A DNA stretch of 63,022 nt, filler included, from Globobulimina sp. (Eukaryota), in the NCBI GenBank assembly GCA_003354225.1. It is 48 parts of 48 records of this genome, joined end to end, with 100 filler letters (N's around TTAATTAATTAA, not from the genome) between each part and the next. Parts side by side here need not be neighbours in the genome. Positions count along the whole stretch, not along the records: positions 27,629 to 28,843 come from PIVH01020812.1; 47 more parts are not named here. One strand, written 5' to 3'. The notes beneath the pieces were generated by a model. That model searched no databases. It had not been told where the DNA came from and was given only the letters and a program-made list of their open reading frames with translations. The position numbers and the translations under genes were made by a program. Position 1 is the stretch's first letter. Each line of letters starts with the position of its first letter. This document shows positions 17,247 through 56,891 of this stretch, in pieces.

Positions 17247-18205
17247 ATGCTCGGTATACAACAAAAAATCACGATTGGTGTATTTGGTTTATGGACGTTG
17301 CCATTTGGTTTAAATAATTTTGGTTTTCCTGCTCAAAATTTATTAGATGAACAGCAGCTTGCTGGTGATCCATTGAATAATCCTTCTGCAGCTGGCAAAT
17401 GTTTAAGTGCCTGGTTGCCTATATATCAGCAACAATGGTATCCACCAGGAAATCCTTCATTTCCTGGTCCAATTGCTGCCATAAATCTTGGTTCCGTATA
17501 TAATCTCACAAATATATGTGTATTCACTCAATATGGCACATGGAATATATCCTGGCGAATTGTAGAAAAAAATCCATATAATTCACAAGCGATCTATCAG
17601 TTTACATCAAATATTAACGGAGGTACATGGGAGAATCATTGGAATTGCATTAATTTCACATGCATCACAAAATGTATATGGACAATTTATCACATTATCT
17701 TTATTCAATCCGCCAGAGACTAGTTTATTAGAGCTGGTGTTCTATGGTTCAACCAAAAACAAACCATCTCAGCAGACAAAAAATTATAAATACATTGGCG
17801 ACCCAACTCCTTTGGGATTATTATTAGGCACAAATGGTTACGGTTGGACACCAATTGGATCAGGTATATATTTCGCAAATGTGCCAAACTTAATGATACT
17901 GCTAACGGCTTCATATATATATGCATCAAATACGTAGTGCGGGAGTATGACGATGGGCATTCACCGAAGGTGGTACAGATAAAGCATATGTGGGATATCC
18001 TAACAATCAAAATAGATTTGAATGTGTTGCGCAAGGTGGTTTTTGTTTGGATGAAGTATATGCAAATGCTACCAAATATAATTTAAATTGGCATCAATGT
18101 CTACAGAGTACTCCCGGTGATTCATTAAATAAATTTGCATCGAAATTAGTATCTATTGATAAAGATAGATATGGCAAGAAATTTAGAACAGGCTCAATGC
18201 AATAA
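17247..18205 (+). pseudogene. Frameshifted gene for a probable secreted glycoside-hydrolase-like protein
   Basis: Four overlapping ORFs read as one protein: ...PLGLLLGTNG / VREYDD / GYPNNQNRF...LDEVYAN...QCLQSTP; family assignment uncertain. Confidence 0.4.
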
Positions 18206-19860: not shown

Positions 19861-20583
19861 ATGGCACAATTTGTCAACACTCAGTACATTCCATCGTCAA
19901 TAATCAATACAATTTATAACTGGACGGGGATAACATTAACTTACCAATGGACCTGTACTTCGGGGTTAGCCTTGCAAATGATATGTGGCTATTTCCTTGG
20001 TTTTATGATGTGTCTGGGTCTCTGCTCATTATTTATGATTGACAAATACAGTGAGTCATACTTTTTCCCATTTGCGATGTACATATTCTTTTCAGCATTG
20101 TTTTACTTCATGGAATTTATCTGGCATTCGTTGTATCATCCGGACACATTAAGTGTGTCCGCATTTATTTTATTCAATCACAGCAAAGAATTTTATTATG
20201 CCTTAATTGGATGTTTTACTGAATATTTAATTGAATATTTCTTTTTTCCGTCGTTAAACTTATTTGGAATATTCAATTTAATCGGTTTAGCATTGGTTAT
20301 ATTTGGCCAACTGCTGCGCAGTTTGGCTGAGTTTACAGCGGGTTCTAATTTTACGCATTTAGTGGCTGTGGAAAGGAGAAAGGAGCACCAATTGATAACT
20401 CAAGGAGTGTATCAATATTCGCGTCATCCATCATATTGCGCCTATTTTTACTGGGCAGTCGGAACGCAAATGTTGTTGGGAAATCCAGTGTGCTCAATTG
20501 CATATGCTGTTGTTACATGGAAATTCTTCGACGCACGAATTGAATATGAAGAGTATTTTTTAGTGCAGTTCTTCAAAGACGAG
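19861..20583 (+). CDS. ICMT: Isoprenylcysteine carboxyl methyltransferase (STE14/ICMT), last residues missing
   Basis: Multi-TM; AGSNFTHLV...HQLITQGVYQYSRHPSY...YWAVGTQMLLGNP...FFDARIEYEEYFLVQFF. Confidence 0.95.
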
Positions 20584-20953
20584 CTCAAATTCTTGGGTCA
20601 TGTGATCTCAAGAGAGGGCATCTCCCCGCAGTTAGAGAAAGTAGAGGCGGTGCGTAGCTGGCCCAGACCCACATCTAAAAAGGACCTCAGAGGATTCCTT
20701 GGGTTGGTCGGGTACTACTCAACTTTCATCTACAACGCTGCTAATGTGATGAAGCCACTGCACAACATGACTAAGGATGACGGAGTCGTGCCCGCCACAC
20801 ATGAGGAATGGGAGTCAGTGCCGGAGGCCTTGGCTGCTTTCGAGGGCTTGAAGGAGAGAATGTGTGTCGCACCAGTGCTGGTACTGCCTAACTACAAGGC
20901 CGCATTAGAGGGCACTCAACCATTCCTAGTGCAAACCGATGCAAGCGAGGCAG
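20566..20953 (+). mobile_element. Ty3/gypsy LTR retrotransposon pol fragment (end of RT, connection, start of RNase H)
   Basis: FLGHVISREGI.P...KVEAV..WPRP...DLRGFLGLVGYY...AFEGLK.....PVLVLP...PFLVQTDAS; clearly GC-richer than the ICMT part. Confidence 0.92.
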
Positions 20954-21053
20954 NNNNNNNNNNNNNNNNNNNNNNNNNNNNNNNNNNNNNNNNNNNNTTA
21001 ATTAATTAANNNNNNNNNNNNNNNNNNNNNNNNNNNNNNNNNNNNNNNNNNNN

Positions 21054-27628: not shown

Positions 27629-28219
27629 ATACTATTTGCATCCAGATAGTTAGAGGTAAATGACAATGGCATTACTTCATAAAGCAAAACGAATTTTAAA
27701 AAAAATCAACCTAATTCCATTCATCTATGTAACCTCATTATTAGGTACGGTTCAAATCAGTGCCACAGAATATGAACATCGCATTGGCTCTTTTGGTAGT
27801 AGCATTTCAGAAGTCACGCAAAATTTGGCAGGTAAATGTGACAGATTACAAAGTAATTTAAAATTGAATGTGATAATGTGATGTTAGGTGAATATGCATT
27901 GGCGGAGCAATATTTGGAGGAGTCATTGTTGATGGACCCAGCAAATATTGAAGGATATATAGCGCTGTCGAAGATATATAAAGATAGCAATAGTTTGTGG
28001 TATCAGTATTTAGCTGAGAGAATATTGCGTATTGCATATATTTTAAATCATAAGCATCCGACTGTAAGAAGGAGATTAATTGAAATATTTGAAGAACAGG
28101 GAAGGAATGATTTGGTTGAATTGGTGCAAAAACATCAACCGTTGCCAAATATTGTTGAAATGACAAAGGATGAATTTGATAAAGAACACTCTGATGATAA
28201 GAAATCGGGGTCTGATTAA
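27629..28219 (+). CDS. TPR-like repeat protein C-terminus (1 intron)
   Basis: Intron 27832-27887 joins the two ORFs; GEYALAEQYLEESLLMDPANIEGYIALSKIY. Confidence 0.7.
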
Positions 28220-28448
28220 TTTTGATTTATGAGTTCATATCGCCGTGAGATTGGTTGCGTTTGTCTAGTTTATGATTACTGCATAGACATCTTTTTTCAA
28301 TAAGGGGCTTAATATAAATTGGGACCTAGGCCATCCTTAATTGCAATAGACTAGTTTAAAGGAGCGTAACAGGTCCCATGTCTAGGGATTCTTAACTGCA
28401 ATATCATGGTACCGCATTTAATTGATGTTCCGATCATCCATAGAAAGC

Positions 28449-28456
28449 AAAAAAAA
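28449..28456 (-). terminator. RNA polymerase III oligo-T terminator
   Basis: T8 on the minus strand starting 2 nt after the tRNA discriminator base. Confidence 0.75.
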
Positions 28457-28457
28457 T

Positions 28458-28696
28458 TGGTTCAGGCAGGATTTAAACCTGCATCTATGCGTACTTTTAG
28501 TATTTCTTGAATTGTATTTTGGAATACTTACCAGAGATTGAACAAGCAAACATGTATGTTATCGAGTTTAATAACATATTTAGTGAATAGCGCAAATCGG
28601 TGGGGGGTTTAAACTCAACATCAACCGAAATCAATATTGAGGGAGACGGCATTAGAACCGTAGACGCACGCTCTATCAATATTGAGCTACTGAACC
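28458..28696 (-). tRNA. tRNA-Arg(ACG) gene (or intact-looking pseudogene) with a 164-nt intron at position 37/38
   Basis: 5' exon 28696-28658 GGTTCAG TA GCTC AATATTGATA GAGC G TGCGT CTACGG; 3' exon 28493-28458 T ACGCA TAGAT GCAGG TTTAAAT CCTGC CTGAACC A; all four stems pair perfectly. Confidence 0.85.
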
Positions 28697-28943
28697 TAAC
28701 CATATATGTTTTGTTGTTGAATATTGCCTATCCGTATTGTACTATAAATACAATCAACATTAAAACTTTTATGGAATTATTCATTTTTATTTTTTATTCT
28801 GAATTTTTCAGCGTGGTGTGACGAAAAGAGTGACTCAAATGTTNNNNNNNNNNNNNNNNNNNNNNNNNNNNNNNNNNNNNNNNNNNNTTAATTAATTAAN
28901 NNNNNNNNNNNNNNNNNNNNNNNNNNNNNNNNNNNNNNNNNNN

Positions 28944-34262: not shown

Positions 34263-34383
34263 GAGAAACGAATAGAATATTCCATCAATACTTGAAAATC
34301 CATAACTCGCAACTCTTTTTGTTAGTAGATTGTACAGGAAAATCTTCATTTTTCTGCAAAAAACTTACTTTGCTTTATTACAG

Positions 34384-35146
34384 TCAACATAAAAAAGAGT
34401 GGGAAGCTAAATTAAATGAATGGACGTATTCAGTCAACAAACAATATGATTGTGAAGGAAAAGTGCGTCCCCGTCAAGCTTTAAGAGAGTTAGAAAATGC
34501 ATTGTCTAACACAGATGCAATTGTGTCGACCGATATTGGTAATATATGTTCTGTGGCAAATAGTTATTTACGGTTTTCCAATGAGAAGGAAGCCTCCTTC
34601 TTAGCAGCAATGACATTTGGTAATTGTCAATACGCACTCGGTGCAGCAATGGGTGCAAAAGTCGCCAATCCAAACAGAGCCTGTGTGTCATATGCAGGCG
34701 ATGGAGCATTTGGAATGTCATTCAATGAGTTATTGACCTGCGAGAGGGAGAATATTCCGATAACGGCTGTTGTATTTAATAATGGCCAATGGGGCGCAGA
34801 GAAAAAAAATCAAGTTTTATGGTTTGGTGATCGATATATTGGAGTTAATTTAGATATGAATAGTAATAAATACGTGTCATTCACAGACATTGCTAAAGCA
34901 ATGAATTTAGAAGCAATCAAATGTGTAAATAATGATGAAGTATATGATGAAATGAATAAAGGAATTGATAAGCAATTGAATAAAAATAAAACAACAATTA
35001 TTGAAATTATGTGTACCAAAGAATTAGATGATCCATTTCGGAGAGATGCGATGAAATTACCCAACAGATTATTAAATAAATATAAACAAACCAATCAAAG
35101 TTCTGAATCACAAACTGGACAACCAATTGATATTAGTCATGTGTAA
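34384..35146 (+). CDS. xsc: Sulfoacetaldehyde acetyltransferase (ThDP-dependent), C-terminal part
   Basis: PRQALRELE, STDIGN, FGNC.Y, ThDP motif GDGAFGMS...VFNN, and Xsc-typical QWGAEKKNQ and PFRRDA. Confidence 0.88.
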
Positions 35147-56552: not shown

Positions 56553-56891
56553 GAATTGATTGAGTGCAGTGATACATTGTTGCAAGTTGTTATCATTATC
56601 GCTTCGGAGAAGCAAGGCGTGCTGAATTGTATTCGTTTCATCATCATAGCCTTTCAATATTGATATTTCGGTGGATGTTCTATTAGCAATATGCGGTAAT
56701 ACCATAGCTTGATGTTCATTGAATATCTCTTCGTAGCCATCATCAACGGTATAATGATGTTCTTGTGGATGATAGTATTTTGTTCCGACGGCTAAACTGC
56801 TGAAATGAGCTAACCGATTGTAGTATATATTGATTTGTGAATATAATAATTGAGTATGACTGTTGCTGTTTAATTTGCGGCATTGTCTCAT
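56553..56891 (-). CDS. Hypothetical protein with a basic, targeting-peptide-like N-terminus (3' truncated)
   Basis: Open frame to the contig end; N-terminus rich in R/K/S and lacking acidic residues. Confidence 0.45.

Follow-up and report, generated by a model that had tools for sequence, protein, structure and literature searches.

The window analysed here, 63,022 nt of DNA from Globobulimina sp. with filler included, contains a tRNA-Arg(ACG)-type gene on the minus strand (28458-28696) whose two halves are separated by an insert of 164 nt. The split cloverleaf is real and lies well above chance. What the analysis shows is its anatomy, its non-randomness, that further versions occur and how conservation is distributed between these. 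Our preferred reading, to which we assign a probability of roughly 0.45, is that of a genuine nuclear gene of the tRNA-Arg(ACG) type with a protein-spliced intron at the canonical position, longer than any in the catalogued range of 6-133 nt.

Anatomy and detection of the split gene

All features described here lie on the minus strand. The 5' exon of 39 nt (28658-28696) comprises tRNA positions 1-37, the 3' exon of 36 nt (28458-28493) comprises positions 38-73, and the intervening sequence of 164 nt (28494-28657) occupies the 37/38 site. These limits were read from the sequence and agree with the cloverleaf and the intron placement of ARAGORN, which returns c[28458,28696] i(40,164) with the settings -i0,400 and -i0,1200. 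The 5' exon contains the acceptor strand GGTTCAG, the D stem GCTC/GAGC with its 10-nt D loop (AATATTGATA), the anticodon stem strand TGCGT and the first part of the anticodon loop, C32 U33 A34 C35 G36 G37 (CT-ACG-G). The anticodon ACG occupies 28659-28661, as found both by reading and by ARAGORN. The 3' exon continues with U38, the anticodon stem strand ACGCA, the variable region TAGAT, the T arm GCAGG-TTTAAAT-CCTGC with its loop at 28471-28477, the acceptor strand CTGAACC and a discriminator A. A single A (28457) separates the discriminator from a run of eight T residues (28449-28456), which begins 2 nt past the discriminator. T runs terminate RNA polymerase III, and this T8 run, read from the sequence, is a likely terminator of that kind.

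Since the D loop holds two extra bases, the intron that ARAGORN places after gene base 39 follows tRNA position 37. The intron boundary can be slid by one T with the product unchanged. When the two halves were joined by script, ARAGORN folded them into a standard 75-nt cloverleaf with stems of 7/4/5/5 bp, a 7-nt anticodon loop and Watson-Crick pairs throughout (21 of 21). The residues U8, A14, A21, U33, G53, T54, A58 and C61 are all present in the gene. So are C35, G36 and, in the register of a 10-nt loop, an A at position 20, all three of them arginine identity elements. The sequence-only reading had described minus-strand tRNA-Arg(ACG) halves 164 nt apart, four perfect stems, a break at the canonical 37/38 site, a T8 tract behind the gene, a D loop without GG and a T loop reading TTTAAAT. 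Each part of that description is upheld by the sequence, and for the split itself and the site of the break also by the intron mode of ARAGORN.

Detection depends on allowing introns. Default ARAGORN finds zero tRNAs in the whole window, while the intron mode finds exactly one gene, tRNA-Arg(acg) c[28458,28696], a result unchanged with introns of up to 1200 nt; the locus is thus the only long-intron tRNA candidate in the window. That default scanners can miss long introns, as had been noted, is confirmed here by a gene called in intron mode only, and the scan with extended intron length that the sequence-only reading had proposed for the assembly recovers this gene when run on the window. On scaling the thresholds, ARAGORN kept the joined form up to 115% of default and the genomic form up to 105%; with -rp it raised no pseudogene flag on the joined form. 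The intron mode was also run on simulated DNA, 30 sequences of 60 kb (1.8 Mb in all) from a first-order Markov model of the window. It gave 0 matches at default thresholds and 3 matches at 95% thresholds, and the tRNA-Arg call is therefore not due to permissive settings. At 95% thresholds the program also calls a poor tRNA-Leu within an ORF at 17277-17766 of the window. A run with -mt returned 93 calls, many of them straddling N masks, which we took as noise.

Rfam at gathering scores finds nothing in the window, and the unspliced locus has no match to the tRNA model. At E values of up to 10, a search of 28230-28843 assigned no ribozyme intron, snoRNA, tRNA or other family to the insert; four matches in this interval at E >= 0.7 were set aside as noise.

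The 164-nt insert and its fit to splicing and transcription

The length of the intron, which the sequence-only reading had called unusual, exceeds the 6-133 nt given for eukaryotic canonical-position tRNA introns in the accessible part of a 2014 review (PMC4090602). The same part of this review gives 11-129 nt for archaeal tRNA introns. About 64 nt is called unusually long for a tRNA intron of a green alga in the available sections of another paper (PMC13578239), and a 113-nt intron in Drosophila tRNA-Tyr was missed by tRNAscan-SE 1.3 according to an excerpt of a third (PMC8450103). The literature searched, most of it outside subscription journals and supplements, describes no intron of more than 133 nt in a nuclear tRNA gene of a eukaryote.

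The insert has a GC content of 34%. On its transcribed strand TTTT is absent and the longest T run is 3, while AAAA occurs twice. The absence of TTTT, which the sequence-only reading linked to avoidance of RNA polymerase III termination, is weak evidence for read-through by this polymerase, because TTTT is lacking also in 18% of shuffles of the insert and, among the 164-nt stretches of the window, in 24% overall and in 13% of those with similar T content.

A similarity search with the insert within the window returned self-matches as the only full copies. The best non-self match spans 26 nt at 56654-56679, with 88% identity to intron bases 18-41 (E = 0.002). According to the sequence-only reading, an insert matching a dispersed repeat, together with a lack of spliced reads and an intronless canonical Arg(ACG) gene elsewhere, would point to an interrupted pseudogene; in the window there is no second copy, and in the public runs the insert lies next to exon sequence wherever contigs reach its boundaries. 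A repeat search and direct reading found no terminal inverted repeats at the insert ends, and no true target-site duplication around the insert could be read from the sequence. The TACG present on both sides of the insert stems from the anticodon ACG and the stem strand ACGCA.

A 12-nt sequence, CTCAATATTGAT, occurs once in the intron (28630-28641) and once in the D arm (28675-28686); the repeat search found the two copies to be 100% identical, and their local alignment score was reached by 0 of 500 shuffles. Since the core of the repeat, TCAATATTGA, is a palindrome, the unconstrained fold (-59.9 kcal/mol, z = -3.99) pairs one copy with the other, and the D arm is lost. Such pairing between D arm and intron would compete with the mature domain and would pose a risk of misfolding. 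We considered and rejected a decayed tRNA inside the intron: beyond the 12-mer, the collinear likeness of a D-like and a T-like part is not significant (53 of 1000 shuffles), and the T-like part alone was matched by 110-279 of 1000 shuffles; in another shuffle set the count was 75 of 500.

When the four tRNA stems are enforced, the fold predicts a 5-bp hairpin between anticodon and intron, in which intron bases 8-12 (GCCGT; 28646-28650) are complementary to A34 C35 G36 G37 and the first intron base. Anticodon-intron pairing is described as typical in reviews, to go by the accessible part of one of them (PMC10485636). The proximal pair is absent: position 32 is a C, and its partner would be an A that lies in the intron 3 nt upstream of the 3' splice site. 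The pair between position 32 and the intron is conserved and critical according to the part of the review available (PMC10485636). The constrained minimum-energy fold contains no bulge-helix-bulge motif (two 3-nt bulges and a 4-bp helix); it places the 5' splice site within a helix and the 3' splice site beside a 1-nt bulge.

The elbow also deviates. Almost all cytosolic tRNAs carry G18, G19 and C56, the last of which also belongs to the core of the B box used by TFIIIC. In the tRNA-Arg(ACG) gene, positions 18 and 56 (the latter at 28475) are both T, and the conserved elbow bases are not matched. Set against the B-box consensus as we know it (GGTTCGANTCC), 10 of 11 positions fit and T56 deviates. 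An A19:U56 pair, which had been suggested as a possible lineage-specific replacement, is available in one register, but a G19:U56 pair fits equally well. The TTTAAAT loop with its T56, though atypical, has probably long been present in the family and is then no sign of decay of the 28458-28696 copy, since the contigs of a second locus, described below, list no difference in this loop.

Judged by its sequence, the locus resembles an ordinary intron-containing tRNA gene except for intron length, isotype, two elbow bases and the missing proximal pair. Among the features tested for a functional intron-containing tRNA family, we found the cloverleaf, the intron at 37/38 and a terminator-like T8 run with no T4 inside the intron; two others, the elbow/B-box bases and the proximal pair, failed. 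Arg(ACG) genes are usually intronless.

All steps beyond the anatomy, namely transcription, splicing and aminoacylation of the predicted tRNA-Arg, we infer from the gene itself. RNA polymerase III would initiate a few bases upstream of 28696, directed by the internal A box and by a B box weakened by T56, would pass through the T4-free intron and would halt at T8. The acceptor, D and T arms would then fold into the mature domain, from which the splicing endonuclease would measure its distances so as to cut after G37 and before U38, and tRNA ligase would join the halves. Addition of CCA and deamination of A34 to inosine would complete the molecule, and with inosine in this position the tRNA would read CGU, CGC and CGA.

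Genomic setting, further versions and a second locus

The window is AT-rich, with a GC content of 25-41% in 2-kb steps, and is interrupted about every 1316 bases by pairs of 44-N masks. Eukaryotic nuclear-type Pfam domains score above cut-offs in 3 of 10 and 5 of 10 ORFs of two ORF sets; the domains found in the window are CEP76 peptidase-like, ICMT, dual-specificity phosphatase, TLDc, cNMP-binding, HORMA, zf-RVT and TPP enzyme. One neighbouring gene has GT..AG-like intron boundaries. The best protein relatives of the ORFs searched are 58-83% identical. For the ICMT-like ORF they stand at 70-72% identity, with fungal matches at 38-45%. The Xsc-like TPP enzyme is 83% identical to a EukProt entry and at most 58% identical to proteins of marine eukaryotes, and an Atlas search with it returned bacterial TPP clusters only. 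Two related proteins were found for the CEP76-like ORF.

Pattern searches were extended to metagenome and viral contigs. A 25-nt pattern from the 3' exon had 0 matches in either set, and a 20-nt pattern from the D arm had 0 matches in viral contigs. The one metagenome match of the D-arm pattern (L001) was judged to be due to chance because it lies in coding-looking DNA of a contig without a tRNA.

Of the 11 public runs listed, 9 contain part of the 1215-nt stretch around the gene, and none is on record as RNA. Four (X1, X2, X7 and X8) were compared, all as assembled contigs. By the size of their contigs X2, X7 and X8 look transcriptome-like, the kind of run not being on record. Positions 27629-27792 have no contig cover in the four runs. 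No joint across the insert is reported in the contigs of these runs, and thus neither a spliced form nor an intronless copy with identical exons was seen; assembled contigs cannot reliably show a 75-nt tRNA and cannot show the absence of a joint.

Contigs of X1, X2 and X8 contain at least two further versions of the exon-intron unit, one represented by records 6 and 13 and the other by records 7, 12 and 22, both unlike the version in the window. By these contigs, the tRNA-Arg gene exists in a few closely related versions. Across the other versions, 57 substitutions fall in 685 covered intron nucleotides. All listed intron differences lie within 28531-28632, and the first 25 and last 37 intron bases show none. 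In record 12, the 102 nt of mid-intron sequence hold 17 differences and the remaining 75 nt hold 0 (p = 5e-5).

Only two exon differences are listed, at 28661 and 28665. The first, A34 to G in X8 and in one X1 contig, changes the anticodon to GCG, which is still an arginine anticodon. The second, G30 to A, occurs in one low-depth X1 contig, the same that carries the change at position 34. A comparison of exons with intron gives p = 0.001 when up to four unplaced differences near contig ends are ignored and p = 0.14 when all of them are put in the exons. Exon conservation against intron divergence among the versions is therefore suggestive, as the contigs are not independent and their ends are shaped by the assembler.

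The upstream flank is covered by a single X1 contig, which lists three differences and a 5-nt gap. The gap, at 28693, corresponds to the loss of one unit of the tandem GGTTA|GGTTC just upstream of base 1 and leaves the acceptor strand intact. A contig of X8 spans the 5' exon and the intron and stops about 10 nt upstream of base 1, to which we give no weight, as contigs cannot show RNA ends. A search that allowed up to 3 mismatches found no match in the window to the upstream exon of the X2 and X8 contigs.

A second locus is present in contigs of X7 and X8. It matches 28458-28489 only and diverges on both sides, so that the likeness ends at the predicted 3' end of the tRNA and, on the other side, no more than 4 nt from the predicted 3' splice site. 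Both flanks are unrelated, and a T6 run follows some 15 nt downstream; as far as can be read, the 30 bases available upstream form no anticodon arm. Boundaries of likeness that match predicted exon ends would be expected of a functional unit, and this agreement we regard as the strongest argument for real exons.

About 90 nt downstream of the gene, at roughly 28322-28365, lies a very abundant short repeat. In X1 the summed contig depth is about equal on insert and exons, and the neighbouring repeat is covered far more deeply, depth being a rough guide.

Alternative readings, known systems and significance

A chance cloverleaf in AT-rich DNA has in its favour the permissiveness of the ARAGORN intron mode, with its poor tRNA-Leu and three simulated matches at 95% thresholds; set against the empty simulation at default thresholds, four perfect stems and halves that are conserved in contigs of other runs, its probability is very low. 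The main rival, less probable than the preferred reading, is that of a non-functional tRNA-derived copy, or a small duplicated family of such copies, with an insertion in the anticodon loop. Its clean stems would then be due to a recent origin or to gene conversion and not to selection. This would agree with T at positions 18 and 56 and the weakened B box, with the lack of both a proximal anticodon-intron pair and a bulge-helix-bulge, and with several near-identical versions that include changes at positions 34 and 30. Rfam detects no tRNA in the unspliced locus, the genomic ARAGORN call is kept only up to 105% of thresholds, and repetitive tRNA-like elements of fungi are reported to mimic tRNA genes in the part of the paper available (PMC8450103). 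Against a non-functional copy stand 21 of 21 intact stem pairs beside a mid-intron region that differs by up to 17 in 102 nt, an insert that, with 74 junctions to choose from, sits at the single canonical one, and T8 directly behind the gene. Likeness to the second locus covers exactly the 3' exon and does not reach into the sequence around it, and no poly-A or LINE-like tail, target-site duplication or terminal repeats were found. The fungal elements have identical 50-bp flanks according to the same excerpt (PMC8450103), whereas the upstream flank here varies in the X1 contig by three differences and the 5-nt gap.

Two further origins of the locus appear less probable still. The gene might be a NUMT-like relic, copied into the nucleus from an organellar tRNA-Arg(ACG) of mitochondrial type and given its insertion later. 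Many mitochondrial tRNAs have AT-rich loops that lack G18 and C56, and organelles and bacteria usually have ACG as their arginine anticodon, both of which suit such a source. Nuclear copies of mitochondrial tRNAs are on record, as stated in the accessible portion of one report (PMC7722341). Nothing organellar was noticed in the flanks, however, where the neighbours are of nuclear type, one with GT..AG-like intron boundaries; the additional insertion would have to land exactly at 37/38, a terminator-like T8 follows the gene, and only the 3' exon is common to the second locus. We consider this origin improbable. The remaining explanation, a working tRNA gene recently broken at 37/38 by a small MITE-like mobile element, is in our view very improbable. 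It could draw on the abundant repeat about 90 nt downstream, from which small repeats may be taken to be active in the genome, and on the 26-nt stretch with 88% identity to intron bases 18-41. It conflicts with the absence of a second insert copy in the window, of terminal inverted repeats and of a true target duplication, with a depth in X1 that is, as a rough guide, similar over insert and exons and far below that of the neighbouring repeat, and with versions of the insert that diverge in the middle only.

Comparison with known systems places the locus closest to its description as a tRNA gene with a canonical intron where anatomy is concerned. With the yeast intron families and Drosophila tRNA-Tyr it shares an intron one base 3' of the anticodon, a full cloverleaf in the mature domain, a possible anticodon-intron pairing, a T-run terminator, several copies with related introns and a length of intron that eludes scanners. 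It differs from them in the 164 nt of its intron, the isotype Arg(ACG), T18 and T56 and the lack of a proximal pair, and splicing is here predicted. Archaeal bulge-helix-bulge introns are likewise spliced by proteins, often lie at 37/38 and can exceed 100 nt, as the available part of the 2014 review states (PMC4090602), splicing again being a prediction for the gene described here. Some archaeal introns host box C/D RNA, whereas the insert contains no snoRNA or other Rfam family; also unlike archaeal introns, it shows no bulge-helix-bulge in the constrained fold, and the surrounding genes are eukaryotic.

Tests for a tRNA-derived repeat or SINE found no other copy in the 63-kb window, few versions in the four runs and neither tail nor duplication. 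What the locus does have in common with tRNA-derived repeats and pseudogenes is the presence of more than one near-identical copy, deviations at universally conserved bases and one copy with a changed anticodon. It differs from them in its few versions, the lack of a tail, the perfection of all stems and an upstream flank that is not identical in the one X1 contig covering it. Like the group I and group II introns of plastid and cyanobacterial tRNA genes, the insert interrupts the anticodon loop and is longer than 100 nt; in contrast to them, it matches no ribozyme family and lies in a nuclear context. Group I and group II introns are usually longer than 164 nt.

Should the locus be a dead copy, it would count as an ordinary pseudogene and have little importance beyond that. 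If it is spliced as the preferred reading of a genuine nuclear gene predicts, its intron would be the longest at the canonical position of a eukaryotic nuclear tRNA. The gene would then offer a natural experiment on the limits of the spacing between A box and B box. It would also probe how well the ruler of the splicing endonuclease copes with an intron that is both large and structured, with the lack of an anticodon-intron pair and with an elbow that departs from the standard. Default scans (ARAGORN without -i, Rfam models) can leave such an isoacceptor unannotated in little-studied eukaryotes, and isoacceptors missed in this way would distort analyses of tRNA repertoire and codon usage. The lineage may have an overlooked class of long-intron tRNA genes, a suggestion based on one Arg gene family.

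A wider and more speculative reading, which we regard as doubtful, is that CGN arginine codons are read in this lineage by a small nuclear tRNA family without G18 and C56, whose introns of about 164 nt, at the canonical position, are the longest reported for eukaryotic tRNA and are spliced without a proximal pair. If so, the splicing endonuclease and TFIIIC would have relaxed or altered recognition, and the sister version with the anticodon GCG would add a wobble usage unusual for a eukaryote.

A short abundant repeat downstream of the tRNA gene

Depth of the assembled contigs from X1, one of four public sequencing runs, together with the points at which contigs enter or leave the element, marks a short, extremely abundant repeat at 28320-28379, with a core at about 28322-28365. 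In X1, contig depth sums to about 1415 across the repeat and to 5.7 across the adjacent gene. The positions 28322-28332 and 28365-28368 are where many contigs, from all four runs, enter and exit the repeat. By reading, we found 8-nt inverted arms, TGGGACCT and AGGTCCCA (minus strand), which are unlisted in the automated repeat search, being shorter than its minimum length. Because these arms enclose a 44-nt core, the element looks like a miniature palindromic repeat. It lies downstream of the Arg(ACG)-type tRNA gene (28458-28696, minus strand), at a distance of about 90 nt.

Likenesses within the tRNA intron and a second tRNA candidate

Within the window, bases 18-41 of the 164-nt tRNA intron (28494-28657, minus strand) match a 26-nt stretch at 56654-56679 that includes the motif TCAATATTGAT (88% identity, E = 0.002). 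On sequence similarity, this may be a chance likeness or a vestige of the source of part of the intron. The final 38 nt of the intron (28494-28531, minus strand) start with GTAAGT and end with AG, termini that resemble those of a miniature spliceosomal intron, a likeness that is probably coincidental in AT-rich DNA.

At 95% thresholds, ARAGORN also proposed a tRNA-Leu(taa) gene at 17277-17766 (plus strand), interrupted by an intron of 397 nt; the candidate has several mismatched stems and sits inside an open reading frame (ORF) at 17247-17723. The same thresholds gave three comparable matches in 1.8 Mb of simulated Markov sequence modelled on the window, and we therefore judged the candidate a false positive.

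Possible intron boundaries of the TPR-like gene

Contigs from two further runs, X2 and X8, exit the window at 27884, within a TPR-like gene (27878-28219), and continue into identical loose sequence, while an X1 contig departs at 27832. The window itself reads CAG|GTAAAT across 27831/27832, and across 27887/27888 it reads TTAG|G; judged by these motifs, both positions look like intron boundaries of the gene. The upstream exon taken from the contigs gave no match in the window when searched as a 22-nt motif with up to three mismatches allowed.

Masking and protein-coding neighbours

The window contains 94 runs of exactly 44 N (4136 N in total), forming 47 pairs with 12 bases within each pair. 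The pairs recur about every 1316 nt across the whole window (for example 1217-1260 and 1273-1316); the runs are a regular mask and not assembly gaps. Most long ORFs are cut at about 400 residues by this mask, which could hide further small genes.

The ORF at 19861-21009 (plus strand) carries an isoprenylcysteine carboxyl methyltransferase (ICMT) domain at residues 143-235, and its C-terminal part, in the same single open frame, resembles reverse transcriptase and RNase H proteins of the Ty3/gypsy type. One of these proteins is 94% identical along an aligned stretch covering 21% of the query. The ICMT gene is thus probably adjoined here by a fragment of a retroelement.

The C-terminal part of a thiamine pyrophosphate (TPP) enzyme resembling sulfoacetaldehyde acetyltransferase (Xsc) is encoded at 34292-35146 (plus strand). 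The named organisms with matching proteins, at 58% identity or less, are a jellyfish, a ctenophore, a dinoflagellate and marine protists, a set that hints at marine eukaryotic origin. The best relatives of the enzyme are eukaryotic (83%, 75% and 71% identity).
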